A DNA stretch of 64,000 bases from Candidatus Margulisbacteria bacterium GWF2_35_9. GTDB lineage: Bacteria; Margulisbacteria; Riflemargulisbacteria; GWF2-35-9. Positions 2,845 through 64,000 of the stretch are shown here, piece by piece (position 1 is the stretch's first letter; every line of letters starts with the position of its first letter). Position numbers and translations under genes: made by a program. A model generated the notes under the pieces. That model saw only the letters and a program-made list of their open reading frames with translations, had not been told where the DNA came from and ran no database searches. The stretch spans positions 11,524-75,523 of the forward strand of contig MFRH01000061.1 of assembly GCA_001783275.1 (NCBI GenBank). Direction: 5' to 3'.

Positions 2845-2852
2845 ATATTAAA

Positions 2853-17286: not shown

Positions 17287-17302
17287 TAAGTGGGAGAATT
17301 AA

Positions 17303-19687: not shown

Positions 19688-19692
19688 TAAGT

Positions 19693-40711: not shown

Positions 40712-42517
40712 ATGAAACGAATATTGACAGCATACAAAGACTTACTTGGAATAATATTCGGTAAAGCCCCGATAATGGTTATCGTCACTTTTTTATTAGC
40801 AATTATCACCGGATTATTAACTCCCTTAGGAGTTTATGTTAATCAGCATGTTTTTGACGGTGGATTGGCGGTAGCACAGGGTGTAATGACTTTTACGAGT
40901 TATTCTTTTTATCTTGTGTTGTTTGTAATAATTGCACTTTTGCCTACAATAATAAGCGGCATTGTATGGAATTATGTTCAGCCCCGTTCTATATTGATTT
41001 TAAGAACATCATATAAAGAACGTATGCTTAAGAAGCTTAAAACAATGAAGTACGAGCACTTTGAGAGTGAAAAGTCCGCAGAAATAATAGATAAAGCATA
41101 TAACAGAGCGGAAAGTTCGGCTAGACACCTGTGGCCTATGTATGTTAATTACTGGATAATATCTGTTATCTCCGGTATTGGCTCGCTTGCCTATATTGTA
41201 AGTATACGGTGGTGGCTTTTACTTACAGTTTTAATTCCTTTTATACTCGAAACATATATCTCATCAAAAACAAATTATAACATTTATTCCGAACTAGAAA
41301 CATATTGGGAAAAGGAAAGAAAGTACAGCACTCTCGGATGGTATTTAAGGTCAAGGGATTTTTCTAAAGAAATAAAAGCGTTTGGTAATTCAGACTATTT
41401 AATTGATACATATAAAAATAGGTTGAATGAGCGAAACAAGGATTATGAACGCTATTATTTTAAGAATCTGCGAAAGATATTGTTAGGAGAAAACATTACA
41501 AGAATTGCATCCATTGTAAATGTAATTATTTTACTTATATTATTTGTATACGGGAAGATGTCGGTGGGACTTTTTATTGCTATGACACGCTTGATGTTCG
41601 GCGGAGTATACGAGAGTTTAGGAGGATGTGCGTTTATATTCAAATGGGCACCATATCACATAAACTCATTCGATTATTATGACAAATTCTTTAACTTGTC
41701 CGACGAATCGGAGGGAACGGAGAAGGATCTACCAGAATCATTTGACATTGAGTTCCGTGATGTGTGGTTCCGATATCCGGGAACCGAAAAGGATATATTG
41801 AAAGGTTTGACTTTTAAGATAAAGAACGGAGAAAAAGCTTCAATTGTTGGAGAAAACGGTGAGGGCAAGTCAACCCTTATAAAATTATTACTAGGGATTT
41901 TCACTCCTGATAAAGGTGAAATATTAATCGGCGGAAAGAAACTGTACGACTATCCTTTAAGTGTTAGGACAAAAATATTCGGACCGGTATTTCAAGACTT
42001 TTCCAGATACAGTATAACATTGAAAGAAAATATCGGTATCGGCGAAATCGATGAGATTGACAACGACAAAAAAATAATAATGGCGGCTAAAAAAGGTAAG
42101 GCAGATGAGTTTGCGGAGAAGTTTGAGAAAGGTTATGATACGCTGCTTGGCAGAGACTTTGATGGTGGCGTTGATGTATCTGGAGGGCAATGGCAGAGAA
42201 TAGCGATCTCCCGTGCGTTCATGGGTAATAAGCCAATATTGTTGCTGGATGAACCAACTTCCCAACTGGATCCGTTGGCGGAAGCTAATTTATATAACGA
42301 GTTTGCAGAAATAGCGGAGAACAAAACTGCGATTTTTATAACTCACAGATTAGGTTCAACAATGATCACTGACAGGATTTTCGTAATAAGCGACGGTAAA
42401 ATCATGGAATCTGGAACACACGAGGAACTGATGCGGTCAGAAGGTATTTATTCAAATATGTTCAACGCGCAGAAACAGTGGTATAAAAAGGAAGCGGAGG
42501 TCGTCGTAAATGCCTAA
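40712..42517 (+). CDS. ABC transporter permease/ATP-binding protein (exporter half-transporter)
   Basis: 6-TM TMD plus NBD: GENGEGKST, VSGGQWQRIAISRA, LLLDEPTSQLD, ITHRL. Confidence 0.85.
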   Translation: MKRILTAYKDLLGIIFGKAPIMVIVTFLLAIITGLLTPLGVYVNQHVFDGGLAVAQGVMTFTSYSFYLVLFVIIALLPTIISGIVWNYVQPRSILILRTSYKERMLKKLKTMKYEHFESEKSAEIIDKAYNRAESSARHLWPMYVNYWIISVISGIGSLAYIVSIRWWLLLTVLIPFILETYISSKTNYNIYSELETYWEKERKYSTLGWYLRSRDFSKEIKAFGNSDYLIDTYKNRLNERNKDYERYYFKNLRKILLGENITRIASIVNVIILLILFVYGKMSVGLFIAMTRLMFGGVYESLGGCAFIFKWAPYHINSFDYYDKFFNLSDESEGTEKDLPESFDIEFRDVWFRYPGTEKDILKGLTFKIKNGEKASIVGENGEGKSTLIKLLLGIFTPDKGEILIGGKKLYDYPLSVRTKIFGPVFQDFSRYSITLKENIGIGEIDEIDNDKKIIMAAKKGKADEFAEKFEKGYDTLLGRDFDGGVDVSGGQWQRIAISRAFMGNKPILLLDEPTSQLDPLAEANLYNEFAEIAENKTAIFITHRLGSTMITDRIFVISDGKIMESGTHEELMRSEGIYSNMFNAQKQWYKKEAEVVVNA

Positions 42518-44414
42518 GAAAATTAAAGACAAACTAGAAGAAAAAATACCTGTATACGAAATAAAATACGAGGACAACACCACAGACTTTGAAAAAGATA
42601 TACTAAAAGAAAATCCACCCAAGCTGTCATATTTGACAAAGCTATTTAGATATGTTTTCTCATCTGCGAAATTAATGTGCGGTATTTTTTTAGGTCTAGC
42701 GATAATATTAAGTATATTACAACCGGTAACGGCATTTATCTGGGGAAGATATATCGACACCGCAAACGGTTATTCTGGTAAAATAGAGATTTCATCACTT
42801 CAATTAATTTCACTTATCAGCCTTGCGGTGATATATTTGGTTATTGGTTTTATCATTAATCTTTTAAATCGTTATCTTTATGGAGGAGAAGATATTGAGC
42901 GAATAAGTAAAGTTCAGGATCATCGCTTACAGGAAAAATTTCAAGCGAAGTTATTCAAAAAAATATCGATGTTGTACCCCGATTATATGGAAGTACCGAA
43001 AATCAACGATATTATAAATCGCAGTTTTGATTCAATGGGTGGTGAATGGAGTTCTCTTCAAAGAGGAGTTATTATCGAAGGGTATATTATTATTGCGAAA
43101 ATTATCTCTGTTATAATGGTTGCCGCTTCTTTGTATATTTTTAATCCGATATTATGCTATATAGTGCTGGTAGCACCGATACCAACTCTTTACACAACTT
43201 ATGTAGGAAACAAATTAAAATTTAAGTTTTCGCGTGATAACGGGAAGATCCTGCGTGAAGCTGATTATTATCAACGAGTGCTGCTTGGCAGTTCAGCAAA
43301 AGAAGTAAAAGCATTGAATCTATTTGATTTCTTTTTTACAAAGTGGAAAGTATTAGCGGATGATTATGTGGTGAAAGAAAAGAAAAACCAGCAGAATGTG
43401 TTTTTTCTCGGAATGGCAAGCGGCTTTGTATCAAATATTGCAAGTATTACAGCGAACGTTTTCGCGATTATTCTAATGACGCAGGGTAAACTATCGGTCG
43501 GTGCACTGGGTGCGGTCTTGTCATTGAATGGAACTCTCTTGAACAGCACATCCCAATTATTCAACTCAGTCGCAAACTTTGTATCTAAGAAAAACGAATC
43601 GGCACAGTTTTTCGAGCTTATAGATTTAAAAGAACAGATGTTAAAAGATGTTATGAAAAAAGAAACACCGACCATCGTGAATACATTGGAAGCTATGAAT
43701 ATATGTTACCGTTATCCTCTGACTGATGAATACAGAATAAGAAACGTAAATTTTACAATAAATAAAGGTGAAAAAGTTGCGTTTGTCGGTGAAAATGGTG
43801 CAGGTAAAACAACGTTCATAAAATTATTAATAGGAATGCTTGAACCGTCAAGCGGAGAAGTCCTGATAAATGGAATTGATGTGAAATATATTAATTTTTC
43901 AGAAAAATATGATTCTTTATCATATGTTTTTCAGGAACCAGCCAGATTTAACACATTTACAATCGGTGACAATGTTTTTTTCGGCGAAGTGAAGAGAGAA
44001 CGAAACGAAAGTCAGATAGACAAAGCCCTTAAATTTTCCGGTTTTGAAGGAGCAGAAAAAGATACGTTACTTGGTAAAGATATTGGTGGAACTGATTTAT
44101 CCGGTGGCCAGTGGCAGAAAATTGCTATCGCTCGTGCTTATTACAGAGACCGTGATTTTATTGTTCTTGATGAACCTACCAGTAATTTAGACCCGTTTGC
44201 CGAATCCGAAATTTTCAGAAAATACATAGCAATGACAGAAGGAAAGACTGTCATCATGGTTACACACAGAATAAGTGTCGCTTCACTTGCCGATAGAGTC
44301 GTTGTTTTCAAAGACGGTGAAATTGTTGAAGACGGCTCTCATGAAAAGTTATTATCAAATAATGGTGAATATACAAGGTTATATTCAACACAGGCAAAAT
44401 GGTATGACAGATAA
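42510..44414 (+). CDS. ABC transporter permease/ATP-binding protein (second half-transporter, heterodimer partner)
   Basis: GENGAGKTT, LSGGQWQKIAIARA, VLDEPTSNLD, VTHRI. 8-nt overlap with the upstream gene. Confidence 0.85.
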   Translation: MPKKIKDKLEEKIPVYEIKYEDNTTDFEKDILKENPPKLSYLTKLFRYVFSSAKLMCGIFLGLAIILSILQPVTAFIWGRYIDTANGYSGKIEISSLQLISLISLAVIYLVIGFIINLLNRYLYGGEDIERISKVQDHRLQEKFQAKLFKKISMLYPDYMEVPKINDIINRSFDSMGGEWSSLQRGVIIEGYIIIAKIISVIMVAASLYIFNPILCYIVLVAPIPTLYTTYVGNKLKFKFSRDNGKILREADYYQRVLLGSSAKEVKALNLFDFFFTKWKVLADDYVVKEKKNQQNVFFLGMASGFVSNIASITANVFAIILMTQGKLSVGALGAVLSLNGTLLNSTSQLFNSVANFVSKKNESAQFFELIDLKEQMLKDVMKKETPTIVNTLEAMNICYRYPLTDEYRIRNVNFTINKGEKVAFVGENGAGKTTFIKLLIGMLEPSSGEVLINGIDVKYINFSEKYDSLSYVFQEPARFNTFTIGDNVFFGEVKRERNESQIDKALKFSGFEGAEKDTLLGKDIGGTDLSGGQWQKIAIARAYYRDRDFIVLDEPTSNLDPFAESEIFRKYIAMTEGKTVIMVTHRISVASLADRVVVFKDGEIVEDGSHEKLLSNNGEYTRLYSTQAKWYDR

Positions 44415-44661: not shown

Positions 44662-46323
44662 TCAATTTTTAATAAATCTAACCATTCCGAATGTTGTGGG
44701 ATTATAATAGTCATACGTAGGATTAGACCAACATAAGACTGCATCAAGATCGGAATCATTCGTATCAACATTATTTAACACGAAATCCATACCGAGGTAA
44801 TTCAAGTTGGAGTAATTTATACCAAGTTTTTCCCATGATAATTGTAATGAAATCAAGTATCCCGATTCTGTTATTTTAAATGAAGCATCCTGCTCGTTTA
44901 GTGGAAAAGGTGTGTAAGCTCTTGTGTCTTGCCATTCTCCAATATACATAGAATCTATTCCATATTCACCTTTATCATTTATATATGGTGAAACAAATAT
45001 ACCGGTTGTAATTCCACTTTTATCAGTATCGAAATTTGGATTATATATAATTATATTAATACTTTCTGTCCACTTGTTTTCTCTTCCGGCTCCGCCCACC
45101 ATGACAATAGGATCATTAATATCAAACTCTATATATAACTTCTGTTCATCATATCGCATTGCTATTTTGCCATTATAATCATTTTTAGGTGTCAAAGCAC
45201 TTCTGCATATTGTACCAAAACGTTTTTTGGTTAAAGAATTTGATTTTTCGTCCATTAATATTTTAAAATTGCCTTTACTGTACTCACATAAATATTGCGA
45301 ATTATTCTCTAAACATTTCTTTATTACTTCTTTATTAATATCACTTAAATTTTTAGAACATAGATCCTTGCAGGAATATATTGTTCTAATATTTCTGTAA
45401 ATTTGGTCTTTCCAAAAGTTACAATCGTATTTTTGAATAACTTCCAATATTTCATCATTCAAAGGAGTAATACCTAATAACTCTTTTGACATTTTATTCG
45501 CGAACAGAATATCTTCAGAAAATCCATATAATTCTATTCGTTCATATAATATATCTTCATTTATATCTTCACGATATTTCTCTAAAATTAGTAATCCATC
45601 AACCAATGTCTTAAGATTATATTCAATAAAAGATTGTTTACTGTAATACCAATTAGATCCAATGCTGTCGAAAGTATGTCTTGCTGCGTGTTGTAACGCA
45701 AAAATGAATCTATCATATACATCACAAACATATATAGTTTTATTGTCTAACAAGAAAGGCTTTTTATGTAAAAAAACAGTTTCAATAAAATTATTACCGG
45801 TGCTTGTTTGAATAGAAAACCAACTTGCACTAACTGCCACATGCAGCTCTAAGTATATGTTCAATATTTTATCTTTTTTTAGGAATTTATCAATATGATG
45901 ATGACTCTTGTAACTTAAGTCTTTTTTAATAAGTTCAGGAGTTATTTCTTTTTCTCCATATTTATATTCTAATGATTTACAAGCATTACTAAATCTGACT
46001 ACATCACATGGCCGAATAAGTATATCAATATCATTTGACGGACGTTCATTCGGATTGGAATAAAGGTCGTAAGCTTCAGCAATACCTTTAAATAAAATAA
46101 TCTCTATATCCAGTGATTCGGCAATCTTGAAGAGCCTCTTTATTTCTTCTTTTATTTCAATCTGCCTATGTTTTTGTATTAATTTGGAGGTTGAGTTTTC
46201 ATTATTACTTTCTTTAGTTAAGAAATATTGAAGCCCAAAGAAAGTAGAATCTTTTTCAAGGTTTTCATCTTTAATATTTTGCTTGATTACTTTATTAATT
46301 TGGTCTAGAGTACCGTTAATCAT
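44662..46323 (-). CDS. nucleotidyltransferase-family protein (PF14907-like N-terminal half) with C-terminal beta-rich domain
   Basis: ILFKGIAEAYDLYSNPNERPSNDIDILIRP fits the 'uncharacterised nucleotidyltransferase' signature found in lasso/HPr-rel-A systems. Confidence 0.55.
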   Translation of the reverse strand: MINGTLDQINKVIKQNIKDENLEKDSTFFGLQYFLTKESNNENSTSKLIQKHRQIEIKEEIKRLFKIAESLDIEIILFKGIAEAYDLYSNPNERPSNDIDILIRPCDVVRFSNACKSLEYKYGEKEITPELIKKDLSYKSHHHIDKFLKKDKILNIYLELHVAVSASWFSIQTSTGNNFIETVFLHKKPFLLDNKTIYVCDVYDRFIFALQHAARHTFDSIGSNWYYSKQSFIEYNLKTLVDGLLILEKYREDINEDILYERIELYGFSEDILFANKMSKELLGITPLNDEILEVIQKYDCNFWKDQIYRNIRTIYSCKDLCSKNLSDINKEVIKKCLENNSQYLCEYSKGNFKILMDEKSNSLTKKRFGTICRSALTPKNDYNGKIAMRYDEQKLYIEFDINDPIVMVGGAGRENKWTESINIIIYNPNFDTDKSGITTGIFVSPYINDKGEYGIDSMYIGEWQDTRAYTPFPLNEQDASFKITESGYLISLQLSWEKLGINYSNLNYLGMDFVLNNVDTNDSDLDAVLCWSNPTYDYYNPTTFGMVRFIKN

Positions 46324-47353
46324 ATACTTCTACCTTCTTTAATTGATTTTTCAAATCATATCCTATGAATTGTAACTTTCTGAATTCACAATCGCCATCA
46401 TTACCAAGCGGGTCATTTGATATAAAATATGCAACCGCCATACAGCCTTTTTTACAATGACTTCTGATTATGCATTTCGAACAACCATAATCGATATTTT
46501 TTCTTTCGAGATTTATTGCTGCAATCTTCAACAAGTTTGATTCGAATTCATCTAATGAAAAATTAAATATATTACCTATACTATATTTACTATCATATAA
46601 TAGCTGACATGGTAAAATTGAACCATCGACTTTTATAGATATTTGCATTTCAGACTCAGTATCGTCAAGAGGACAATTTGAAGTACACAAGGGAGGAAAA
46701 ACTTTTAGTTTATACTCCTTATTTAATTTATCAATTAATTTAATAACAGATAGTTTTTGTGTTGCTGTTAAGCATTTTTGTTCCCAATCTTTTTCACCGT
46801 TTCCGGCACGGCTAATAAAAGCATAACTAGGTTTTATTCCTTTATTTAAAGAAAAAAGATAAAAGTTTTCTACATCTGATATATTAAGCTGTGAAATAAC
46901 CATCTTTAGGGTCATTTTTTTCTTATGTTTTCTTAACTCATCTATTAATTTAACTGTTTTACCGAAATTATTAGTTCCTCTTGTTTTTTTATTTATTTCT
47001 TCACATGAACCGTCAAGGCTTATCTGAAACGATAAATTATCAGTATTTATATATGTATTGATAATATTTTCATTAAAGATAGTCCCGTTTGTTATAATAC
47101 AAAATCTTAAGCTTGGATATTTCTCAGTTAATAAAGCAATCTTATCAATTTCGCTGTGAAGAAAAGGTTCGCCACCAGAAAAAACTATTTCGGTACAACC
47201 CAATTCTAACAATCTATTTATTATTAGATCAAATTGACCATATGATATTTCTTTTCTTATGTTGTTTAGCCCTGATCGGTTATAACAAGTATTACAGTTA
47301 AGATTGCATATATTTATTATTTCGATATAAGCTGAGTTAATTTTGATATTCAT
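46316..47353 (-). CDS. radical SAM peptide maturase with SPASM domain
   Basis: CNLNCNTC (CxxxCxxC). C-terminal Cys-rich CSKCIIRSHCKKGC auxiliary-cluster motif. Confidence 0.85.
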   Translation of the reverse strand: MNIKINSAYIEIINICNLNCNTCYNRSGLNNIRKEISYGQFDLIINRLLELGCTEIVFSGGEPFLHSEIDKIALLTEKYPSLRFCIITNGTIFNENIINTYINTDNLSFQISLDGSCEEINKKTRGTNNFGKTVKLIDELRKHKKKMTLKMVISQLNISDVENFYLFSLNKGIKPSYAFISRAGNGEKDWEQKCLTATQKLSVIKLIDKLNKEYKLKVFPPLCTSNCPLDDTESEMQISIKVDGSILPCQLLYDSKYSIGNIFNFSLDEFESNLLKIAAINLERKNIDYGCSKCIIRSHCKKGCMAVAYFISNDPLGNDGDCEFRKLQFIGYDLKNQLKKVEVYD

Positions 47354-47613
47354 GATTCAATAACTATCTTTTTTTCGATGAGTGAGTTAATGAAATCAGT
47401 CACATCATCTGATATTTCATTTGAAGTTATATCGTATAATTGTTTAAGATTCTTTATTATATCTTCCTTTTCGTTTATACCATCAATTTGCTTTAAAATA
47501 TCAGCTCCGCTTGCTTCAATAATATGTGTGTTTCCGGTATCGGGATCAAAAATAGCATAATTATCATTGTCGATTTCAATAAAATCAAACTTGTTATTCT
47601 TTACTAAACTCAT
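47350..47613 (-). CDS. PqqD family peptide chaperone (RiPP recognition element)
   Basis: 87 aa, PqqD-like three-strand/three-helix pattern. Overlaps both neighbouring genes. Confidence 0.65.
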   Translation of the reverse strand: MSLVKNNKFDFIEIDNDNYAIFDPDTGNTHIIEASGADILKQIDGINEKEDIIKNLKQLYDITSNEISDDVTDFINSLIEKKIVIES

Positions 47614-48055
47614 TATTTGTCGTCTCCTTTAAATATTTTTGTTTATATTTTTTATAAATATTACTTTCTATTGTTTTAAAATAATCATAGTCATTTCTGA
47701 CAAACTCTTTATTAACCTCTAAAGACATATTTATAAAATCAATATCAACACTAGGAATATCAAGCACTTTTCCTATAATGTCATTTTTACCTACTTCCTC
47801 TAACCTATAACAATTATCACCTTTACAGTAATATTTACCGTCTTTTATTTCAAGGATTCTATGTATTAACAAACCTTCATCGTTATACTTAAAAACAATC
47901 ACCGAACCTACTTCATATTCTTTCGCTTTCTTTATTAATACTTTATCTCCGTCCTTTAATACAGGAAACATACTGTTTCCGACTACTGTTATTTGAAACG
48001 AGTTTTGGGACTCTGTTTTATGCTTTAAAATGCTGAACATTATTTTGTTATTCAT
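47594..48055 (-). CDS. S24/S26 family (signal-peptidase-I/LexA-like) serine peptidase
   Basis: VVGNSMFPVLKDGDKVLIKK resembles the GDSMxPTL catalytic-Ser box. Confidence 0.5.
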   Translation of the reverse strand: MNNKIMFSILKHKTESQNSFQITVVGNSMFPVLKDGDKVLIKKAKEYEVGSVIVFKYNDEGLLIHRILEIKDGKYYCKGDNCYRLEEVGKNDIIGKVLDIPSVDIDFINMSLEVNKEFVRNDYDYFKTIESNIYKKYKQKYLKETTNNEFSKE

Positions 48056-48860
48056 AAGATAATTCCTTTATATAATCCAAAACAAAATTCATATCTGAAT
48101 ACCTTAGTATCTTACATTTTGATGATAACTTACTCAAAAATGATATATATTTTGAACTTACTTTATATGTTGTTGCGGCATTCTTCATAAGTAGCACTAA
48201 AGCTTTTGATGTAGGTATATCAACGACTTCATTTTTTTCATCAGTCCGTTCAATAAAAAAAATGTATCCTAGTTTCATTACATCAGGTGATAAGTTATCT
48301 GGATTAAAAATAAATCTCTGTATGGTAGGTGTATTTATAATTGTGGATATTGGAGGTTCAGTATCGTATTCTTTAAGTACCTGCATCCCTCCTGCTCTTA
48401 AATGAATAGGCACTTGGTAAGGATAAAAATCGAAGTTCTTCATATCTATATATGTACAATCATCTGTTGCATAATTTAAACCTTTTAAAGTAAGAAAAGC
48501 TGTAAGCGTAGTTTTACCTGAACTTGTAGAAGCAGCAAATAAATATGAATGATTATTATAATAAACACATCCTGAGTGTAGAGCAAAAATGTTTTCATTT
48601 ATAGATGCGTTTTCAAAAATGATATTTACTATTTCCTGTAGAGGATTATTTGTTTGTTTCTTTTTATCGTAATAAACAACATAATATTTATCATCATTAT
48701 ATTTTTCGACATTGATTTCAAAACAAGAAACATCATCCTGTATATCTGTATAAGTATATTTACCGTACAAATTGCCAATCATACTGTGAATTTCAATGCA
48801 ATTTGTATTTATCTTTATATATTTATATGAACATGGTTTCAGTAAATAAATACTTAACAT
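48048..48860 (-). CDS. HprK-related kinase (HPr kinase C-terminal-domain-like P-loop protein)
   Basis: HSGCVYYNNHSYLFAASTSSGKTTLTAFLTLKGLNYATDD parallels the HprK [25 protein letters not shown] segment. Confidence 0.6.
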   Translation of the reverse strand: MLSIYLLKPCSYKYIKINTNCIEIHSMIGNLYGKYTYTDIQDDVSCFEINVEKYNDDKYYVVYYDKKKQTNNPLQEIVNIIFENASINENIFALHSGCVYYNNHSYLFAASTSSGKTTLTAFLTLKGLNYATDDCTYIDMKNFDFYPYQVPIHLRAGGMQVLKEYDTEPPISTIINTPTIQRFIFNPDNLSPDVMKLGYIFFIERTDEKNEVVDIPTSKALVLLMKNAATTYKVSSKYISFLSKLSSKCKILRYSDMNFVLDYIKELSYE

Positions 48861-48987
48861 CTTCTACACCTTATGACATTATTTTTAAATTAAATGGATT
48901 ATAACACATATTTTTTTCAATTGCAATAGGATATTGAAATTAAACTTGCAAAAATCGACATTTTTAACAAAATAATGCATCAATGTA

Positions 48988-49015
48988 TTGACAATTTTAA
49001 ATTTTTAGATATAAT
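48988..49015 (+). promoter_or_regulatory. consensus sigma-A promoter
   Basis: TTGACA-16 nt-TATAAT. Lies inside the ORF-track ORF 48975.., which argues for the later start at 49053. Confidence 0.5.
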
Positions 49016-49052
49016 AAAATTATATAATAATAAAAAGGGGTGTATTAATGTT

Positions 49053-50081
49053 ATGAAATATATAAAAACACCTGGTGAAATATATGACTTATTTAAGCTA
49101 TTTATATACAATTTTAACAAAGAAGATTATGATAAAAAAATACTTAATGGTAATTCAAGAGAATTTGAGTTATTATGGAAAACGGTATTAAATGGTTCGC
49201 AAATAAACGATAAATTATATATGTTTTTTTATAAATTAAATAATAAATCAACTTTTATGACAGAGCATTTTTTTACTTCATTTTATAATGATTTTACTGA
49301 TCCAGATTTTTTTACAAATATGTGCGAAAGAATTCGTTCCATGGATTTATTTGTCGAAATATTAAAATACTATTTAGATAAAGATTCCTTTGAAATTCGA
49401 GATGTTTATTCTGCTGATTATATTTATGAATTGTCATTAAAAATTGATATACCCGATAGAATTAGACTTCAAATATTACATTTTAATTATAACAGGAATC
49501 AATATTCAGATATTTTAATTAATGAGTTAAAAGAAAAACATGAGCTTATAAAAAATTATTATTCCGAAAATTCTAATAAGATAGATGAAATTAAAAATTC
49601 AATGTTAAATGATCTAATACAATTGAATTTATGCAAGGAAATTGATTTAAGTTCAGAATATATGAATACTTATTATTATTCTGTTTCATTACTTCAAGAT
49701 AAATTCTATGCTTTTTTAAATAATCAAAATAAAGACTTTATTGTAATAGGTTACGATTCGATTAATAACTTAGATTATATTAACAAATTCAAAAATAATG
49801 TTAACATAAGTAAAGTTTCGAAAGCTCTTTCTGATGAATTTCGTATAATTATGTTAAATTTTATAAAAGAAATAGGCGAAATTACTACCTCTGATATTGC
49901 AAGAGAATTTAATATGGGACTTACAGCAATGTATTACCATTTAAGCATGCTTTATGAAGCTAAAATCTTAAGTACACGCAATGAAGGAAGGACGGTGTTT
50001 TACAAAATTAATAGTGAATTTCTAGAAATCTACTCGGAGTTTATTAAACGGTTCGCCTTGGAAGGAGGTGTAAATTTATGA
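49053..50081 (+). CDS. hypothetical protein with C-terminal ArsR-type winged-HTH
   Basis: ITTSDIAREFNMGLTAMYYHLSMLYEAKILSTRNEGRTVFYKI. Start at the in-frame ATG downstream of the promoter. Confidence 0.5.
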   Translation: MKYIKTPGEIYDLFKLFIYNFNKEDYDKKILNGNSREFELLWKTVLNGSQINDKLYMFFYKLNNKSTFMTEHFFTSFYNDFTDPDFFTNMCERIRSMDLFVEILKYYLDKDSFEIRDVYSADYIYELSLKIDIPDRIRLQILHFNYNRNQYSDILINELKEKHELIKNYYSENSNKIDEIKNSMLNDLIQLNLCKEIDLSSEYMNTYYYSVSLLQDKFYAFLNNQNKDFIVIGYDSINNLDYINKFKNNVNISKVSKALSDEFRIIMLNFIKEIGEITTSDIAREFNMGLTAMYYHLSMLYEAKILSTRNEGRTVFYKINSEFLEIYSEFIKRFALEGGVNL

Positions 50082-50200
50082 AAAAATGGTCTAAACCTAC
50101 CGTTATAACAATAAGCGAAAAAGAATTACAGGAAATAATATTAGTTCAAGCATGTTCTGGATATAAATGCGTATTGTTTTATGGACAAATTGAATTTTAA
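50078..50200 (+). CDS. candidate 40-aa RiPP precursor peptide MKKWSKPTVITISEKELQEIILVQACSGYKCVLFYGQIEF
   Basis: GGAAGGAGGTG SD 7 nt upstream. ATG overlaps the upstream stop (ATGA). Charged leader and Cys/Tyr/Gly-rich C-terminus. A strong terminator follows. Below the ORF-track size cutoff. Confidence 0.4.
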   Translation: MKKWSKPTVITISEKELQEIILVQACSGYKCVLFYGQIEF

Positions 50201-55016: not shown

Positions 55017-56972
<1,956 letters not shown>

Positions 56973-57335
56973 TGTATAATAAGTCAGATAAAACACTATA
57001 TAAAATGTGCAATGATAATAAATGTATTGAAGCATCAAGCTGGTTTTTAGGGAAGATCGCATTTTATTTAAAAGAACCTCATAGCAATAAAAATATAAGC
57101 GTTGATAAACATGGATGTACTAATAGAAGTTTCGATTGAAATGATGAAGAAAAATATAATCCCTATCATATAAGTAGTAAATTTCTTCGATTTATTAGAT
57201 AATATGTATATCTCGTTTTAATAAGATCAAGTGTTTTTTTGTACTGATCATTACCCACATTATTGATATTAATCTCTAGTTGTAAAAGGATCTTACAAAA
57301 TATTAAATATCGACGCTAAGGTTAGGTGATGAGAT

Positions 57336-58130
57336 ATGGTTGAACATGAGATGATGGTTAAGACAATCTGTTTTAAAACTTTAAGAGAATTGTTTGGATT
57401 AGATAATGATTTTAATATAATTGCGGGACCATGCGCTATCGAAAGTAAAGAGCAAATGGAATCAGTTGCAAAAATTCTAAAAAAGAATGCGGTTGTTTTT
57501 TTAAGAGGTGGAGCTTATAAACCTAGAACCTCACCCTATGATTTTCAAGGGTTAGGGTTGGATGGCTTAAAGATTCTTGATGATGTTAGAAAGTGTTATA
57601 ATTTACTCACAGTAACAGAGATCTTAGATCCTAGAGATGTTGAACTTGGAATGCGATACACGGATATCATTCAAATTGGTTCAAGAAATATGCAGAATTA
57701 TTCTTTATTGAAGGAGGTGGGAAAATCAAATCATCCAGTATTGTTGAAGAGAGGTATGATGGCAACACTACAAGAATTTTTATATGCAGCGGAATATTTA
57801 GCATATGAGGGCAATGAAAGAATTATCTTATGTGAAAGAGGAATTCGGACATTTGAAAATGGAATAAGAAATATGTTGGATATAGCTGGTATTGCTACAA
57901 TAAAAAATGAAACATCGCTCTCTGTTATTGCCGATTTAAGTCATTCATTGGGGCGAAAAGATATTATCAAATTAGTTGCAAAATGTTTGGTGCCATTATG
58001 TAATGGTATTATGGTCGAAATTCATCCAGATCCGAAAAATGCATTAAGCGATTCACAACAACAATTAAATTTCGATGAATTTACGGATGTAGTAAATGTC
58101 ATTCAAATGGTTTTAGATAGAAATAAATGA
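57336..58130 (+). CDS. 3-deoxy-7-phosphoheptulonate (DAHP) synthase, short unextended class I-beta form (264 aa)
   Basis: IIAGPCAIES...FLRGGAYKPRTSPYDFQG...KRG. 16-nt gap to the next gene and a shared operon structure. Confidence 0.75.
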   Translation: MVEHEMMVKTICFKTLRELFGLDNDFNIIAGPCAIESKEQMESVAKILKKNAVVFLRGGAYKPRTSPYDFQGLGLDGLKILDDVRKCYNLLTVTEILDPRDVELGMRYTDIIQIGSRNMQNYSLLKEVGKSNHPVLLKRGMMATLQEFLYAAEYLAYEGNERIILCERGIRTFENGIRNMLDIAGIATIKNETSLSVIADLSHSLGRKDIIKLVAKCLVPLCNGIMVEIHPDPKNALSDSQQQLNFDEFTDVVNVIQMVLDRNK

Positions 58131-58146
58131 TAAAGGAGTAATTACA

Positions 58147-59067
58147 TTGTATAATTTTTCAAGTAAACCTTTTATTCTCTGCAAATTAACAAACGCTTGT
58201 AACCAAAAATGTATTCATTGCTATACGGACGCTTGCGCAGGCGGAATTACTCAGTTGAAATCTGAACAAGTTATCGACTTACTAGAGGATATTGAAAAAA
58301 TTAATAAGGATTCTGTTGTCAGCTTTATTGGAGGAGAAGCAACGGTTTGGAAGGATTTTTTTGAGGTGATATCTATTCCCAAATATAAAAGTTCTTTATA
58401 TCTCAAAGTAAATACAAACGGCACGGCATTGAAAGAACAGTCATATGATAAATTTGCTGACTCGTCACTATTTGAAACAAGAATTAGTTTGGATTATTAT
58501 TACAATTCAAAGCATGATTATTTTCGTGGGAATGGGACATTTGACAAGGCTGTCAATACTATAAAAGAATTAAAAAAAAGGGGATTAACCGTAACAACAG
58601 GAACTGTAATTAGCCGATTAAACTTTAAAGAAATAAATGAAATAATACAATATTTCCTCAAGCTTGGAATAGAAGTAATGCATTTCTTTCCTTTTTTGCC
58701 ACAGGGCCGTGGAAAAGAATTTATAGAGTTTACACTAAGCGATGATGAAAACACATGGGTTAAAAACGAGATAAAAAAATATCAGAAAAAGCCAGTATGT
58801 ACAGTACCTTGTGATACAGGGACATGTTATTTTAGCGTCACTTTTGATGGAAAGTGTTATTTACATTTCCCGGATAATTCAGAAGAAAAGAAAATTATCG
58901 GTTCCCTGAATGAGAAAAGGTTTTTAGACATTTACCAAGAGGTTTATTCACCCAACGATTATAATATAGTGGATTGCAGTCAATGTGCCTATTATAAAGA
59001 TCCGATCATGTGCAAAAATATGCATACATTTTGTATCGCTGATTTGGACCTTAGAGAGGGATATTAA
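58147..59067 (+). CDS. radical SAM/SPASM domain protein 1
   Basis: CNQKCIHC cluster motif plus C-terminal Cys-rich SPASM. TTG start with AAAGGAG SD. Confidence 0.8.
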   Translation: MYNFSSKPFILCKLTNACNQKCIHCYTDACAGGITQLKSEQVIDLLEDIEKINKDSVVSFIGGEATVWKDFFEVISIPKYKSSLYLKVNTNGTALKEQSYDKFADSSLFETRISLDYYYNSKHDYFRGNGTFDKAVNTIKELKKRGLTVTTGTVISRLNFKEINEIIQYFLKLGIEVMHFFPFLPQGRGKEFIEFTLSDDENTWVKNEIKKYQKKPVCTVPCDTGTCYFSVTFDGKCYLHFPDNSEEKKIIGSLNEKRFLDIYQEVYSPNDYNIVDCSQCAYYKDPIMCKNMHTFCIADLDLREGY

Positions 59068-59957
59068 TGCGTTGTTTTTTATCTTTAACCAATAGGTGCA
59101 ATAAACAATGCGAATATTGTTATTATCATGTAGGAGTTTTAGAAGCATCCAATTGTGAGCCATCACTTGATGAGATTAAAAAATGCTTGGATTTTTTACA
59201 TAAAATGAAATGCGATAGCGTTTCACTGACTGGCGGTGAGCCATTAGTTAGGAAGGACATAGTAGATATTATTAGTTATTCCCATAAAAAAGAGTTAAAG
59301 ATTACTCTCGTTACCAATGGAATGGCACTTGCACAATTTCTTAGTGATAAAGATATGCTTAATCAGATATCTTGTTTCGCTATTTCTTTGCATATCGATC
59401 AACATACTGATATTAATTCCTATTTTCAATATATGAACTCATTAATTAAAGAACTAAAAAAATTTCCGGGTCGTATACGATTAAATTTTACGCTCACAGG
59501 ATTCAACTATCATTATTTTGAGAAATGTATAGATTTTTGTGATAATTTAAACGTTAACTTTAATGTACAACCGGTTGTTCTAGATGAAAATCGAACCGGT
59601 AATAGTGTTCATTCCTTGAAAAACATTAAAAATGAAGAGTTGGAATATTTACAAATGTTGATATTGAAATGGGGAAAAAGCAGTAGTAATGAAAACTATT
59701 CAAAAAAACTTATAACTTATTTGGCAGGGCAACCGATTCAATATGATAAATGTCTGGCAGGAGTTAATTTTTTTGTTATACATCAGGATCTTACGTTACT
59801 ACCTTGTTTTTATAGGCAAGATGCTTCGGTTGGAAGCCTGTTAGACAAAAACTCCAATATTAATATCATTGATTTGTCAAAGAGGTTTAATAATGTATGT
59901 AAAAACTGTCAAGGCCCCCATTGTATAACCCTATGTGAGTTCGGAAAATATTTATAA
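59067..59957 (+). CDS. radical SAM/SPASM domain protein 2
   Basis: CNKQCEYC. C-terminal CKNCQGPHC. taATG overlap with the upstream gene. Confidence 0.8.
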   Translation: MRCFLSLTNRCNKQCEYCYYHVGVLEASNCEPSLDEIKKCLDFLHKMKCDSVSLTGGEPLVRKDIVDIISYSHKKELKITLVTNGMALAQFLSDKDMLNQISCFAISLHIDQHTDINSYFQYMNSLIKELKKFPGRIRLNFTLTGFNYHYFEKCIDFCDNLNVNFNVQPVVLDENRTGNSVHSLKNIKNEELEYLQMLILKWGKSSSNENYSKKLITYLAGQPIQYDKCLAGVNFFVIHQDLTLLPCFYRQDASVGSLLDKNSNINIIDLSKRFNNVCKNCQGPHCITLCEFGKYL

Positions 59958-59993
59958 TTCTTACATTTTACAAGGAAGGATGATGAAACTATT

Positions 59994-60923
59994 ATGACTA
60001 TGCCATTCGTTCAGTTTTATACGACACAAAAGTGCAATATGAGGTGCAACCATTGTTATTTGGCCAGTTTAAGATCAAAAGGTGTTATCAGTTATAAAAA
60101 TGAATTAACGTTACAAGAGACAATTGATGCTTTCCAAAAGTTAAGAAATATGGGGTTTTCAATGGTGAGTTTCGGGGGAGCTGAGCCAACTGAAAAGGAA
60201 GAATTTGGCGAAATTGCATTATCTTTGCATAATCAAGGGTATACTTTGAAAATTCATACAAATGGAACAAACATAAATGATGAGTCTGCTTTAATATACA
60301 AACAGTGTGAATTTTTTGAAGTGCGTATTAGTTTAGATGGTTCGAATGAAGAAGTAAACGATTTCATTCGGGGAGATTCTACATATAAGAAAATAATAAA
60401 AGGGATAAAAAAAGGCATTGAATATGGATTACCTATTACTATAGCTGTCACAATCAGCAAATATAATGTTGACGACTTGCCTAATATTATCGATTTAGCA
60501 AAAGAACTTGATGTTAAAGCAGTGCATTCCTATTTGTTGATTGATAAAGGACGGGGCATAGACTTAACTGACTATTTGCCGGATGATAACGATAAGAGGA
60601 AAGCTAAAAAGATTTTTCAGGATAAAGCCAATCAATATCATGGTATTGCTAAGATAGCTAATGATAATTTACCCTGTGCTGCTGGTGCGTGCTATCTGGA
60701 ATTAAAGCAGGATGGCAGTATAAATCTTTATGAAGATTCCCATGCTTACTTCAGTGTGGGAGTTTCAACAATTGGCAATATTTTTGATCAAGACATTGAA
60801 ACAAAAATAAAAGACGCACTGGTAAACAAAAAGATACCAGATTGTAATAATTGTAAATATTATGGAAACTCCTTATGCCCTGAATTGGATAATTATTGTT
60901 TTGCAGATATTAAATTTTTTTGA
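59994..60923 (+). CDS. radical SAM/SPASM domain protein 3
   Basis: CNMRCNHC. C-terminal CNNCKYYGNSLC. Confidence 0.8.
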   Translation: MTMPFVQFYTTQKCNMRCNHCYLASLRSKGVISYKNELTLQETIDAFQKLRNMGFSMVSFGGAEPTEKEEFGEIALSLHNQGYTLKIHTNGTNINDESALIYKQCEFFEVRISLDGSNEEVNDFIRGDSTYKKIIKGIKKGIEYGLPITIAVTISKYNVDDLPNIIDLAKELDVKAVHSYLLIDKGRGIDLTDYLPDDNDKRKAKKIFQDKANQYHGIAKIANDNLPCAAGACYLELKQDGSINLYEDSHAYFSVGVSTIGNIFDQDIETKIKDALVNKKIPDCNNCKYYGNSLCPELDNYCFADIKFF

Positions 60924-60934
60924 GGAGATATTAA

Positions 60935-61942
60935 ATGTGTTCTTCTAATACGTTAAATAGATTATATTTGTCGATTACCGATGACTGCAACTTATCTTGT
61001 AAACATTGCTTTCGTGGAAGTAATCACAACGATCAAAAGGATCTAAAAACAGATGAGATCAAGAAGATTATTGGAAACGTACGGGATAGCGTCCTCTCAA
61101 AGCAAATAAGTCTGACGGGTGGAGAACCGTTTATGCGAGATGATATTATTGAAATATTAGAATATGCTTATTCGTGTAATGTAAATGTTGACCTTAGTAC
61201 TAACGGTTTACTACTTAATAATGATATTTTAGAAAAACTTGTAAAATTTGACAATATCTTTTATATGCAGATAAGTGTGGATGGTATCACAAAACCAAGT
61301 TATGAATTTATCCGTGGAGCGAATACATACGAACGTTTGATAAAAGTTTTAAGTGAACTTCATTCTTCGGAGTTTCTCAAACAAATCGATCTTATGATGA
61401 TTTTTCTTGTTACTCCTCAAAACATACCTGAGATTGTAAATATACCTGAGTTTGCTAATCAATATGGTTTCGATAAAGTAGTATTAGGAGAAATACTTCC
61501 ATTTGGAAACGGCAATGAGAATTATCAGCAATTGGATATATCACCATATATGGAAACTATCTACGAAAATATCAGGATTGCTAGGGAAAAAAGTAAAATA
61601 CCGATTTTAGATCAATTTCATTTTAGCTTTTTATATACAGGCGAAAATGAAATAACTCCCTGTACTGCAAAACAAGGAAAAATAATGGTTATTGAGCCAA
61701 ATGGAAACATTTTAGCTTGCCCTTATGAACCTAAGCTTTCGTTTGGAAATATCAGAGATTACGATTTTGATATTCGTTCTGCATATCAAGATATTCGAAA
61801 AAAATCTGTTACATATTTTCAAGTCGTTCCGTCATCTTCTAATAAATGTATTTATTATAACGAATGTCAGGGAGGTTGTCCGATACTGGCTATAAAAAAT
61901 AAAGGAGAATGTGATTCAAGATGCAAAAAAATGAAAGCTTAA
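60935..61942 (+). CDS. radical SAM/SPASM domain protein 4
   Basis: CNLSCKHC. C-terminal CQGGCPILA. Confidence 0.8.
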   Translation: MCSSNTLNRLYLSITDDCNLSCKHCFRGSNHNDQKDLKTDEIKKIIGNVRDSVLSKQISLTGGEPFMRDDIIEILEYAYSCNVNVDLSTNGLLLNNDILEKLVKFDNIFYMQISVDGITKPSYEFIRGANTYERLIKVLSELHSSEFLKQIDLMMIFLVTPQNIPEIVNIPEFANQYGFDKVVLGEILPFGNGNENYQQLDISPYMETIYENIRIAREKSKIPILDQFHFSFLYTGENEITPCTAKQGKIMVIEPNGNILACPYEPKLSFGNIRDYDFDIRSAYQDIRKKSVTYFQVVPSSSNKCIYYNECQGGCPILAIKNKGECDSRCKKMKA

Positions 61943-62190
61943 GGTTAAATCCAAATATAACGATTCTTGACAGAAAAAAAAGAATTGATATTGCTGTTAA
62001 AGGAGGAGAAAGTATTACATTAAACAATATAGCTGCAGAAAGTTTTCGATATATTCAAGCAGGGAAAGGACCCGATGAAATAGTTAAGATTATTTTAAAT
62101 GAGTACGATGTCGATCGACAAATAGTTGAAGAAGATACCGATGAATTAATTGATATGCTAAAAAAATATGGAGTTATTATAGATGAATAA
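61921..62190 (+). CDS. PqqD family protein (RRE-like)
   Basis: LNNIAAESFRYIQAGKGPDEIVKIILNEYDVDRQIVEEDTDELIDMLKKYGVI is a typical PqqD pattern. Overlaps both neighbours. Confidence 0.65.
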   Translation: MQKNESLRLNPNITILDRKKRIDIAVKGGESITLNNIAAESFRYIQAGKGPDEIVKIILNEYDVDRQIVEEDTDELIDMLKKYGVIIDE

Positions 62191-62902
62191 AAAAATTAAA
62201 CTGGCGGAATGGAATTCCATCATGTATCAAGATGAGAAAAATATAGAATCTGTTTTTCTTCCGGTGGGTTCATTTGAACAACATGGTCCGCATGGACCAT
62301 ATGGAACAGATTCATATATTGCAGAATACATAACACGTCTTTTATCAGAGAAGACGGGCATTCCTCACCTGCCATGTGTAAATTTTGGATGCAGCGATAT
62401 ACATAAAGAGTATAGAGGAACAATCTCCATCAATAAAAATTCTTATATTTCTTTTCTATCAGATATTTTCGCTTCCCTTTTAGACGGTAATTATAAAAAT
62501 ATTTTTGTTGTAAATGGGCATGGTGGTAATATTCAATGCTTAAATAGTTTAGCTGACCGTTTTAAGAATAAACTGAAAATTATAATAATTAATTGGTGGA
62601 TTATAGGAAGAGAATTTGAAGATTTTAAATATGAAGAGAGGCATCATGCTGGAGCAGAAGAGATGTCAGTTTTAATGAGCTTATCGGAAAAGGTCGTTTA
62701 TAAGGAAAATTTAGTTGATACCCCCGTTTCAGATTATAATCCATATCAAGTATCAAAAATATCTCAATTAACAACAACTGGTAGCATTGGCACTACAACT
62801 ACAGCTTCTGCTATTCGAGGCTCTGATTATCTGTTTAAATTGTTAGAAAAAATTATAGGGAAATATAATTTGGGGGTTCATAATGCAAATATATCCTGTT
62901 GA
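62183..62902 (+). CDS. creatininase-family amidohydrolase (MftE-like peptidase candidate)
   Basis: EQHGPHGPYGTDS, GHGGN and HAGAEE motifs of PF02633. Confidence 0.75.
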   Translation: MNKKIKLAEWNSIMYQDEKNIESVFLPVGSFEQHGPHGPYGTDSYIAEYITRLLSEKTGIPHLPCVNFGCSDIHKEYRGTISINKNSYISFLSDIFASLLDGNYKNIFVVNGHGGNIQCLNSLADRFKNKLKIIIINWWIIGREFEDFKYEERHHAGAEEMSVLMSLSEKVVYKENLVDTPVSDYNPYQVSKISQLTTTGSIGTTTTASAIRGSDYLFKLLEKIIGKYNLGVHNANISC

Positions 62903-64000
62903 ATCGGTTGATCAAAATAATGATACCATTGCTGCTATCTCAACTCCATCTGGTATTGGTGGAATTGGAATAATCCGTATATCGGGTAATAAATCATATA
63001 GCATTTTGAATAAGATATTCGTTAATAATAAGAAAGAACATATATACATAGATAATGAAAGAATGGTTTTTCATGGCTGGATTATCGATACGAATAGTGA
63101 ATTTATAGATGAAGTTCTGTGCTTCTATATGAAAGCACCAAGAAGCTATACGGGAGAAGATATGGTTGAGATCCAATGTCATGGTGGCAATATCTCTTGT
63201 AAGCAGATCCTAAGTATCACAATTCAACAAGGTTGCAGACTTGCAGAAAAAGGTGAGTTTATTTATCGTGCTTACCAAAACAAGAAGGTGACATTGGATA
63301 AAGTAGAAGCTACTTTACAATTAATTAACGCTGATAACAATATTGAATATTTTTCAGCGGTTGATGTAATGTCTGGAAAATATGCGAAATTCATTGAAAA
63401 TATATTTATAAATGTAGCTGACTATACCATGAATATTCGATTATATCCTGATAATTTTTTGGAAAAAAATAATATAATTCAGATGATTATTAACGAAATT
63501 AATATGGAACTAAAAAAATATGACGATATTTGTTATTTAAGAAATGGATATACAATACCTATTGTTGGAAAAACAAATGTTGGAAAATCCCAATTATTTA
63601 ATTTGTTGATTGGAGAAGAAAAAGCAATTGTGTGTGATGAATCGGGCACAACGCGGGATCCTGTTGAGACAAAAATTTATGATTTAAACTATAACATTCA
63701 ATATAAATTAATTGATACGGCCGGAATAACACAATCGGTGTCAAAGGCAGAGAAGTTGGCAATAAAGAAAACAAAAGAATTAATTCGTAATTCACCAATG
63801 GTCATTTTTTTGACAAATCATTTGGAGCTAGACAACATTGAAAAGGATATTATTAAGTTGTCTCAAAATCATATGGGAGTATCGTTTAAAAAAGAAGTAG
63901 CGGAGAAGCATGTATATCAATTTGTTTCAAAAAATAATTTAAATACTATTGAATATCTTAAAAATAAAATTGCTCTAATTATCGAGCAACAAATGAATTC
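62882..64000 (+). CDS. MnmE/TrmE-like GTPase, partial (runs off the window; not in the ORF track because no stop lies in the window)
   Basis: Read directly: MQIYPVESVDQNNDTIAAISTPSGIGGIGIIRISG...EDMVEIQCHGG...GKTNVGKSQLFNLL...TTRD. GGGGG SD. 21-nt overlap with the creatininase-family gene. Confidence 0.65.

Follow-up and report, generated by a model that had tools for sequence, protein, structure and literature searches.

Which compound is made, and from which substrate, by an operon that joins four radical S-adenosylmethionine (rSAM) enzymes, a PqqD-family protein and a creatininase-family hydrolase to a 3-deoxy-D-arabino-heptulosonate 7-phosphate (DAHP) synthase and an MnmE-like GTPase? The question is raised by the 3' end of a 64,000-nucleotide stretch of Candidatus Margulisbacteria bacterium GWF2_35_9 (GenBank contig MFRH01000061.1, positions 11,524 to 75,523), hereafter called the window. 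The complete system is a 12-gene operon plus a precursor-peptide gene, about 10 kb in all, of which the first eight genes are inside the window. The explanation that we consider best, and probable though held with some reserve, is that these 12 genes and the peptide form a rare, previously undescribed cluster of the type that makes peptides synthesized by the ribosome and modified after translation (RiPPs), and that the peptide is turned into a metabolite.

The operon and its precursor-peptide gene

Open reading frames (ORFs) were listed, translated and compared with Pfam and NCBIfam. Eight ORFs, all on the + strand, occupy 57336-64000 of the window (Table 1). Successive intergenic distances are +16, -1, +36, +11, -22, -8 and -20 nt, the PqqD gene overlapping the rSAM4 gene by 22 nt and the creatininase gene overlapping the PqqD gene by 8 nt. 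Eight translationally coupled genes had been described here in an earlier note on this DNA, and ORFs, coordinates and spacings all agree with that description. The DAHP synthase gene is the first of the operon. The groES/groEL genes (55017-56972) and a 55-aa ORF (56972-57139) lie directly 5' of it; both were rejected as operon members, being absent from the related locus L003. Promoter, terminator and Rfam scans around the operon gave nothing above background and no riboswitch.

An exact match of the creatininase protein retrieved this DNA from an ENA contig of 79 kb (L001) and from a Logan contig (L002). Window positions 57336-64000 are identical to L001 5154-11818, and on L001 the operon extends about 3.2 kb beyond the window end. 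The MnmE-like GTPase had been taken to bracket the operon; this did not hold, as four further genes and the peptide gene follow past position 64000. Several of these downstream genes overlap adjacent genes. The operon proteins are annotated at NCBI as hypothetical proteins.

The extension past position 64000 and the small-ORF search that the earlier note had proposed located a precursor gene of 21 codons at about 67177-67242 in window numbering. The suggestion that the substrate might lie beyond the window was thereby borne out, about 3.2 kb past its end and with conservation in eight loci. The peptide is MKKKYMRPRIRVINKCKSIMI in L001 and MKKKYMRPRVRVVNKCKSIMI in L003, where the gene likewise has 21 codons and stands just 3' of the short-chain dehydrogenase/reductase (SDR) gene. 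The counterparts are MKKYTKFRVRVINKCKSIMI (L005), MKTYVKFRVRVINKCKSVMI (L011), MKKKYFKFSIRVINKCKSIMI (L012), MKTYRKFRVRVINKCKSVMI (L013), MKKRYVKFAIRVVNKCKSVMI (L015) and MKKKKYFRFSIRVINKCKSVMI (L017), so that an ORF of 20-22 aa was found in 8/8 related loci of sufficient length. It follows the SDR gene in L001 and L003, precedes rSAM1 in L005, L011 and L013, and is 3' of the creatininase gene in L012, L015 and L017. The peptide carries a net charge of +8 and zero acidic residues. Its 11 C-terminal residues, RV[IV]NKCKS[IV]MI, vary by Ile/Val swaps only, while the enzymes are 31-58% identical between lineages. Nine of the 11 final codons show synonymous variation across lineages, with I/V as the only replacements. 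The L001 and L003 genes differ at 12 nt, of which 10 are third-position synonymous changes and two are first-position changes from Ile to Val, and similarity between the two loci collapses directly after the stop codon. A strong AGGAGGTG-type Shine-Dalgarno sequence lies 6-9 nt 5' of the ORF in the five loci inspected (GGGGGTG or GGAGGTG in L001 and L003). The near-invariant C-terminus, the mostly synonymous changes and the conservation ending at the stop codon argue that the peptide is encoded by a genuine gene under selection that travels with the cluster.

The gene was called by 0/3 gene callers, and no copy of the conserved peptide was found anywhere inside the 64-kb window. Such precursor genes can escape notice: this one has only 21 codons, stands at the far operon end and is not called. 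No curated NCBIfam model matches the peptide. Two other precursor candidates were rejected. The 40-aa ORF at 50078 (MKKWSKPTVITISEKELQEIILVQACSGYKCVLFYGQIEF) lies in a separate low-GC island and is unrelated to the conserved peptide; the idea that it acts in trans was dropped, being no longer needed. The 55-aa ORF at 56972-57139 has no counterpart, and the sequence 5' of the L003 DAHP synthase gene is not conserved.

In four lineages the whole peptide ORF is enclosed by long-range inverted repeats of 14-27 nt with 85-94% complementarity (L001 14947-14964/15090-15107; L003 14291-14308/14513-14530; L005 10746-10772/10904-10930; L013 6441-6454/6597-6610). The repeat sequences differ among lineages, and the remaining lineages have plain hairpins 3' of the ORF. 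These repeats may form a structure that stabilizes or processes the precursor mRNA.

Table 1. Genes of the operon in window and L001 numbering, and gene order of the more distant loci
Feature	Numbering	Coordinates	Strand	Evidence or gene order
DAHP synthase, type I-beta, 264 aa, bare catalytic barrel	window	57336..58130	+	PF00793 DAHP_synth_1, E 1e-71
rSAM1, 306 aa, TTG start, core subfamily 1	window	58147..59067	+	PF04055, E 3e-21
rSAM2, 296 aa, core subfamily 2	window	59067..59957	+	PF04055, E 1e-13, and Fer4_12
rSAM3, 309 aa, core subfamily 3	window	59994..60923	+	PF04055, E 1e-24
rSAM4, 335 aa, seven-Cys SPASM-like C-terminus, MftC-like	window	60935..61942	+	PF04055, E 1e-22
PqqD-family protein, discrete, 89 aa	window	61921..62190	+	PF05402, 43.7 bits vs cutoff 23.4
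Creatininase-family metallohydrolase, 239 aa, MftE-like candidate peptidase	window	62183..62902	+	PF02633, E 5e-45
MnmE-like GTPase, residues 1-372 of 438, gene cut by window end	window	62883..64000	+	TrmE_N, E 5e-40; MMR_HSR1; MnmE_helical
MnmE-like GTPase, complete, 438 aa, C-terminus FCVGK	L001	10701-12017		TIGR00450, 238 bits, cutoff 252.6
ALAD/HemB-like protein, 245 aa	L001	12034-12771		Pfam ALAD, E 4e-9
Cys-rich protein, 119 aa	L001	12786-13145		no family
P-loop HprK-like protein, 353 aa	L001	13142-14203		38 bits to HprK-related kinase B, TIGR04355
FabG-like SDR	L001	14181-14942		adh_short, E 3e-31; FabG-type NCBIfam matches all below cutoffs
Precursor peptide gene, 21 codons	L001	14995-15060		52 nt 3' of SDR gene (last operon gene)
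L005, human gut, 13 contigs				Aldedh, HemB-like, peptide, rSAM1, rSAM3 (frameshifted), rSAM4, PqqD, creatininase; on the 3' side a type I-alpha DAHP synthase-aroA-aroC-aroK operon
L011, Logan				HemB-like, Cys-rich, SDR, peptide, rSAM1-4, PqqD, creatininase, then BtrH-like, acyl carrier protein and adenylation genes
L012, L015, L017, ENA/Logan				HemB-like::Cys-rich fusion, rSAM3, rSAM4, PqqD, creatininase, peptide, rSAM1, rSAM2
L013, Logan				ileS, fusion protein, peptide, rSAM1-4, contig end

Related loci and conserved core

Relatives were gathered via the HemB-like protein, a creatininase profile and a full HMMER scan (HemB-like profile, 1.84 billion representatives). All came from ENA or Logan assemblies, and six lineages were obtained besides L001 and L003. 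L003, the contig that encodes protein P0002, carries all 12 genes, from DAHP synthase to SDR, in unchanged order, with 63-78% protein identity and overlapping starts and stops. Its flanks are entirely different, with a divergent agrB/agrD/histidine-kinase/LytTR locus 5' and unrelated genes plus a transposase 3', which argues that the arrangement is not due to chance. The agr locus is at 1002-3936 on the minus strand (agrD 46 aa), a formylglycine-generating-enzyme (FGE)-sulfatase-family gene lies beyond it at 110-940 and the transposase is at 17826-18521.

Across the lineages (gene orders in Table 1), the conserved core consists of the peptide, four old and distinct rSAM subfamilies, the fixed rSAM4-PqqD-creatininase trio and the HemB-like enzyme, in many cases as a fusion with the Cys-rich domain. 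In the fusion-type loci, extra genes are an aldo-keto reductase in L015 and, in L017, a class-III aminotransferase gene that separates the peptide gene from rSAM1 (best models GntE and HemL, about 122 bits). An exporter or immunity gene was not found among the called genes of any locus. At E <=1e-10, the HemB-like profile retrieved only 12 proteins from the 1.84 billion representatives, and this profile and two back-translated peptide patterns gave 0 matches in 185,579 reference genomes and the Joint Genome Institute (JGI) metagenome set. The cluster family is very rare and patchy, and stands near mobile elements.

After the core, L011 carries at 10569-20511 two BtrH_N-type proteins, a free-standing carrier protein, two adenylation enzymes, a GT2 glycosyltransferase and an acyltransferase, and an IS66 transposase lies upstream of the cluster. 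The carrier-protein genes suggest that the peptide-derived product is acylated there by a carrier-protein pathway. A type-2 ileS gene (with DUF5915) is directly upstream and co-directional in L012 (3561-6674) and L013 (2101-5208). In L005, ileS is a few genes downstream of the cluster and leuS is also near (19032-20756 and 5232-7658). This linkage could be inherited synteny, or the isoleucyl-tRNA synthetase could be the target and ileS a self-resistance gene; the peptide ends in Ile.

Core enzymes and accessory proteins

The Cx3Cx2C motif is intact in all four rSAMs, which form four clean orthologous groups (21-35% identical between groups) with one of each in every lineage except L005. The rSAM1 orthologues at seven other loci are 34-76% identical, and C222, C277, C280, C289 and C296 are invariant (eight orthologues). 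Those of rSAM2, absent only from the gut-type locus L005, are 31-63% identical and keep C103, C229, C247, C281 and C286 besides the Cx3Cx2C motif. For rSAM3 the range is 45-78%, with C228, C284, C287, C295 and C302 invariant. The best-conserved enzyme of the family is rSAM4 (53-75%), with C243, C262, C305, C311, C315, C326 and C330. The C-terminal invariant Cys counts of rSAM1 to rSAM4 are 5, 4-5, 5 and 7, and only rSAM4 has a full SPASM-like set. It scores 20.6 bits with the Pfam SPASM model (cutoff 21.5), and rSAM1-3 have no SPASM match. Of the four SPASM enzymes announced in the earlier note, the rSAM assignment stands for all (PF04055, Cx3Cx2C) and 'SPASM/twitch-like' is a fair label; the narrower term SPASM would formally go too far for the whole set of four.

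The best NCBIfam model of rSAM4 is the mycofactocin maturase MftC (TIGR03962, 127.4 bits over residues 13-315, cutoff 265). The best models of rSAM1 and rSAM3 are those of the heme-pathway proteins NirJ2, AhbD and AhbC (100-114 bits). Grouping with the anaerobic sulfatase-maturating enzymes (anSME) had been named as an outcome that would speak against a peptide substrate. The anSME model TIGR03942 (cutoff 349) is among the 25 best models of rSAM4 only, at 68 bits, far below MftC, and the best scores of the four enzymes are with MftC, NirJ/Ahb and peptide-maturase models. The closest solved structures are SkfB (the best match of rSAM1, 59 bits), the glycerol dialkyl glycerol tetraether (GDGT)/macrocyclic-archaeol synthase (7tol), CteB, MoaA and SuiB, at 30-60 bits.

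No rSAM carries an N-terminal extension before the Cx3Cx2C motif, and an N-terminal RiPP recognition element (RRE) is absent from all four, which fits the presence of a discrete PqqD protein. PqqD orthologues are 38-65% identical and present in all complete loci, and the protein is probably a peptide-binding RRE. The creatininase homologue has MftE as its best NCBIfam model (TIGR03964, 95.4 bits, cutoff 172), and its metal-site motifs EQHGPHG, GTD, NGHGGN and HAGxxE are invariant in three orthologues. A profile search found only five close clusters before the score dropped from 252 to 184 bits. In every locus, rSAM4, PqqD and creatininase follow one another in this fixed order. Together with the MftC and MftE models as best matches, this supports the mycofactocin-type logic of PqqD, rSAM and creatininase that had been proposed.

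The HemB-like protein, encoded outside the window, is the most distinctive core enzyme. It has 245 aa against about 325, reaches 30.9 bits with the HemB equivalog NF006762 (cutoff 297) and is 13-19% identical to solved HemB structures. Its residues K133 and K178 align with residues of the yeast 5-aminolaevulinate dehydratase (ALAD) in the AAKF and IIVKP motifs; from the ALAD literature, we take K210 and K263 to be the Schiff-base lysines of the yeast enzyme. The motif DLCICxxxxDGHC aligns with the zinc Cys triad site. The AF2 model (predicted local distance difference test, pLDDT, 74; predicted template modelling score, pTM, 0.77) is a complete barrel of eight beta/alpha units, and the top 47 Foldseek matches in the PDB are all porphobilinogen synthases (query-normalized TM-score 0.65-0.75). 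By alignment and predicted fold, the barrel descends from HemB without being HemB and has kept both catalytic lysines.

In L012, L013, L015 and L017 this barrel is fused to the Cys-rich domain, which argues that both act together. The Cys-rich domain has five invariant Cys (CPGxxCxH ... NxCxxxC ... DLxIxCT). For the 119-aa protein no relatives were detectable, a PDB sequence search gave nothing significant and no NCBIfam model matched it or the fusion protein. From its Cx4C...Cx3C spacing, our guess is a thioredoxin-like 2Fe-2S protein.

Among the accessory proteins, the DAHP synthase passes the domain model TIGR01361 (320.1 bits vs cutoff 267.75), has the KPRTS motif in the sequence GAYKPRTSPYDFQG and matches solved I-beta enzymes at 244-270 bits, including the unregulated 262-aa enzyme of P. 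furiosus (1zco). Its L003 orthologue is 72% identical, and the gene there overlaps rSAM1 by 8 nt. Among 5.8 billion clustered proteins, the MnmE-like protein has just one close relative (P0002, 73% identity). Compared along its full length with ordinary MnmE proteins, it shows 32-37% identity and, as a full protein, scores 238.1 bits with TIGR00450, below the equivalog cutoff of 252.6. The N-domain, G1-G3 (P-loop, GTTRD, DTAG) and the C-terminal FCxGK are kept; the G4 motif NKxD has become FKKE/FKKD and the helical domain has deletions. No mnmG gene was found in the locus next to it. A PDB sequence search with the HprK-like P-loop protein gave no significant match.

The DAHP synthase and MnmE-like genes are absent from the six more distant loci and were found only in this lineage and L003. 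They belong to the operon because L003 keeps the same gene order with different flanks; as defining parts of the family they fall away. With the HprK-like protein, they are lineage-specific accessories, neither defining parts nor housekeeping neighbours. The DAHP synthase gene beside L005 was rejected as an orthologue: it is of type I-alpha (aroFGH), 23-27% identical, and heads an aroA-aroC-aroK operon. This recurrence may be due to a real connection with shikimate metabolism, or be coincidental.

Proposed pathway and competing readings

To our knowledge, peptide-derived small molecules that depend on an rSAM, an RRE and a hydrolase are few, pyrroloquinoline quinone (PQQ) and mycofactocin being the known examples. 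Each of these two pathways revealed new enzymology and a new metabolite. By generic RiPP criteria, the predicted gene content (a precursor gene, PqqD/RRE and four rSAM enzymes) would place the present system among RiPP clusters. It resembles mycofactocin in its short ribosomal peptide, discrete PqqD chaperone, rSAM with a SPASM-type C-terminus and creatininase-family hydrolase. However, MftA ends in GVY and the peptide here in N-K-C-K-S-[IV]-M-I, three more rSAM subfamilies are present and a HemB-like protein stands in place of MftD (a flavin mononucleotide, FMN, oxidase). In both L001 and L003 the 12 genes include neither MftD nor MftF (a glycosyltransferase), nicotinoprotein partner genes are lacking nearby, occurrence is extremely rare and patchy, and the MftC/MftE equivalog cutoffs (265/172) are missed at 127.4/95.4 bits. 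The likeness to PQQ lies in a 20-24-residue precursor almost without leader, a separate PqqD and an rSAM-SPASM partner; unlike that pathway, the system has no PqqB/PqqC, matches PqqE (TIGR02109) at 45-70.5 bits against a cutoff of 381 and uses a peptide without the Glu-x3-Tyr motif. Tandem SPASM-type rSAMs, PqqD and a short Cys peptide also occur in the GeoRSP, SynChlorMet ScmE/ScmF, ACGX and sactipeptide/ranthipeptide cassettes of NCBIfam, but cross-matches are at 60-90 bits, none reaches its cutoff, and none of these cassettes includes a creatininase-family, HemB-like, MnmE-like or DAHP synthase gene.

Two of the proteins can also be set against their single-enzyme relatives. With porphobilinogen synthase, the HemB-like protein shares the TIM barrel, both Schiff-base lysines, the SDM motif and mostly the Cys-x-Cys-x7-Cys zinc site; it lacks the N-terminal arm and about 100 residues and stands in a peptide-modification cluster. 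With MnmE (TrmE), the GTPase shares the three-domain architecture, the folate-binding-type N-domain, G1-G3 and a C-terminal FCxGK with the catalytic Cys. It differs in the degenerate G4, the shortened helical domain and the rSAM/PqqD operon context, and only two such proteins were found. In the searchable literature, no paper on creatininase with PqqD and rSAM was found except on mycofactocin, and the peptide motif was not found. Neither curated RiPP family models nor searchable papers were found to contain the HemB-like component. A 2023 review of RiPP proteases mentions MftE as the sole creatininase homologue; MftE cleaves after MftC has acted and a small C-terminal fragment is released (PMC10885120). 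In its logic the system resembles the mycofactocin and PQQ pathways, being of the known rSAM/RRE-dependent kind that makes peptide-derived metabolites; it fails every mycofactocin/PQQ equivalog test and has components not known from any RiPP or cofactor pathway described.

In the pathway that we propose, the acidic PqqD would bind the peptide through its basic N-terminal half (MKKKYxRP/F-R) and present the core RV[IV]NKCKS[IV]MI to the enzymes. The four non-redundant rSAMs, each with auxiliary Fe-S Cys motifs, would act successively on this invariant core; they might introduce cross-links or oxidations, or rSAM4 might perform an MftC-type C-terminal oxidative decarboxylation. The MftE-like hydrolase would then release the modified C-terminal piece and expose a primary amine, and the HemB-like enzyme with its Cys-rich partner could condense the amino-carbonyl functions of the fragment into an N-heterocycle (Knorr-type). 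Variable carbonyl/amine enzymes would tailor the product: the SDR in this lineage, and elsewhere an aldehyde dehydrogenase, an aldo-keto reductase, a class-III aminotransferase or BtrH-like N-acyltransferases. An amine- or carbonyl-bearing intermediate is suggested by the fact that each of these variable accessory enzymes is of an amine- or carbonyl-handling type. In this lineage, the unregulated DAHP synthase, the MnmE paralogue (through its folate-binding N-domain, GTPase and catalytic C-terminal Cys) and the P-loop kinase-like protein may add or supply further building blocks. A specialized small metabolite is more likely as product than a universal cofactor because of the patchy distribution and the clusters near mobile elements. 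The family joins a precursor with an almost frozen sequence to four presumably obligatory radical enzymes. With the full parts list defined (12 enzymes and a 21-aa substrate in about 10 kb), the pathway is open to synthesis and heterologous expression.

Several points weigh against this pathway. All chemical steps are deduced from the families to which the proteins belong, the functional analogies are loose because the scores of the rSAM, creatininase and MnmE proteins fall below equivalog cutoffs, and the role of the DAHP synthase is left unexplained by the model. The zinc Cys triad is missing from the L012 HemB-like fusion protein, so the chemistry may differ from that of HemB. The 11-13 consecutive conserved residues are beyond the needs of excising a two- or three-residue cofactor, which favours a larger final product. 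Finally, L005 is without rSAM2, the Cys-rich protein and the SDR, and its rSAM3 is frameshifted by a 1-nt insertion in the GGAEP motif (GGA C GGA GCC, within L005 12050-12120). The resulting split into 70 and 260 aa was called in 5/5 covering contigs (L005 and L006-L009) from different samples. Some 'core' parts may thus be dispensable, or the L005 copy may be decaying though its peptide gene is intact.

The main rival, possible though rather unlikely, is that the product is the whole, multiply cross-linked cationic peptide of 20-22 residues, with an antimicrobial or signalling role as a RiPP. In that case the creatininase would trim just a few N-terminal residues or have another role, and the HemB-like enzyme, the SDR and other enzymes would decorate the intact peptide. 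The net charge of +8 with no acidic residue, the run of 11-13 conserved residues, the agr quorum-sensing locus that adjoins the L003 cluster, the patchy distribution and the mobile elements nearby would all suit such a product; four rSAMs suit multiple cross-links, and their closest solved relatives include the sactipeptide-type SkfB and CteB. But the called genes of the eight loci include no exporter, immunity or leader-peptidase/ABC (ATP-binding cassette) gene, and the peptide has almost no leader region. The rSAM4-PqqD-creatininase trio mirrors MftC/MftB/MftE, which release a small C-terminal fragment (PMC10885120), and the accessory enzymes (aldehyde dehydrogenase, aminotransferase, aldo-keto reductase, DAHP synthase) are of small-molecule types.

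Two further readings are unlikely. A non-peptide metabolite derived from pyrrole/tetrapyrrole or shikimate precursors, built by the HemB-like enzyme, the NirJ/Ahb-like rSAMs and the DAHP synthase, with the small ORF as a regulatory or unrelated micro-protein, we consider improbable. The heme-pathway models that best match rSAM1 and rSAM3 (100-114 bits), the HemB-like enzyme in the core, the HemL-like class-III aminotransferase in one locus and the DAHP synthase adjoining the cluster in two non-orthologous forms would fit it. Yet those rSAM scores are 4-6-fold under the family cutoffs, HemC, HemD and other tetrapyrrole genes are absent from every locus, and a discrete PqqD (RRE), which has no role known without a peptide, is kept in all of them. 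Moreover, the small ORF is the most conserved element and moves with the cluster, and its position at the 3' end here is unlike that of a leader or attenuator peptide. That the genes do not form one system, with a small RiPP cassette that just happens to abut housekeeping DAHP synthase and mnmE genes, is highly improbable. The earlier note had raised such an abutment as a way in which its reading might fail, and the model score of a genuine I-beta DAHP synthase, the N-domain, P-loop, GTTRD, DTAG and C-terminal CxGK retained by the MnmE-like protein and the lack of both genes in six more distant loci are in its favour. Both genes nevertheless move with the operon into the different context of L003, where gene order and overlapping start and stop codons are kept between agr genes and a transposase. 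The MnmE-like gene lies inside the operon, flanked by the creatininase and HemB-like genes, rather than at an edge, and its product, with 32-37% identity to ordinary MnmE, a lone close relative among 5.8 billion proteins, a degenerate G4 and no adjacent mnmG, does not look like the housekeeping protein.

Within the favoured reading of a peptide-derived metabolite, a bolder version is quite doubtful: a new metabolite class with a pyrrole-type heterocycle built by a HemB-descended enzyme, together with an MnmE paralogue, in the Margulisbacteria-type variant, that performs folate-dependent aminomethyl chemistry on a non-tRNA substrate or loads the new amine onto tRNA. In this version, the four rSAMs and the MftE-like hydrolase would make the amino-carbonyl groups at the peptide C-terminus. 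If true, either MnmE activity would give the MnmE family its first role outside the MnmEG tRNA pathway.

Other features of the window were recorded. A low-GC (0.23-0.28) RiPP-like island at 44662-50200, with ABC exporters at 40712-44414, encodes an NTP_transf_5 protein with CBM9, an rSAM-SPASM enzyme, an S24/S26-like peptidase, a 270-aa P-loop HprK-like protein, a 368-aa helix-turn-helix protein, the 40-aa ORF named above and a GNAT protein. On L001, an NTP_transf_5 nucleotidyltransferase gene (15382-16422) lies 3' of the peptide gene, which is not so in L003; it has a paralogue in this island (21% identity over 179 residues, E 0.001). The RNA genes of the window are a tmRNA (31275-31622, 167 bits) and a tRNA (25733-25806).

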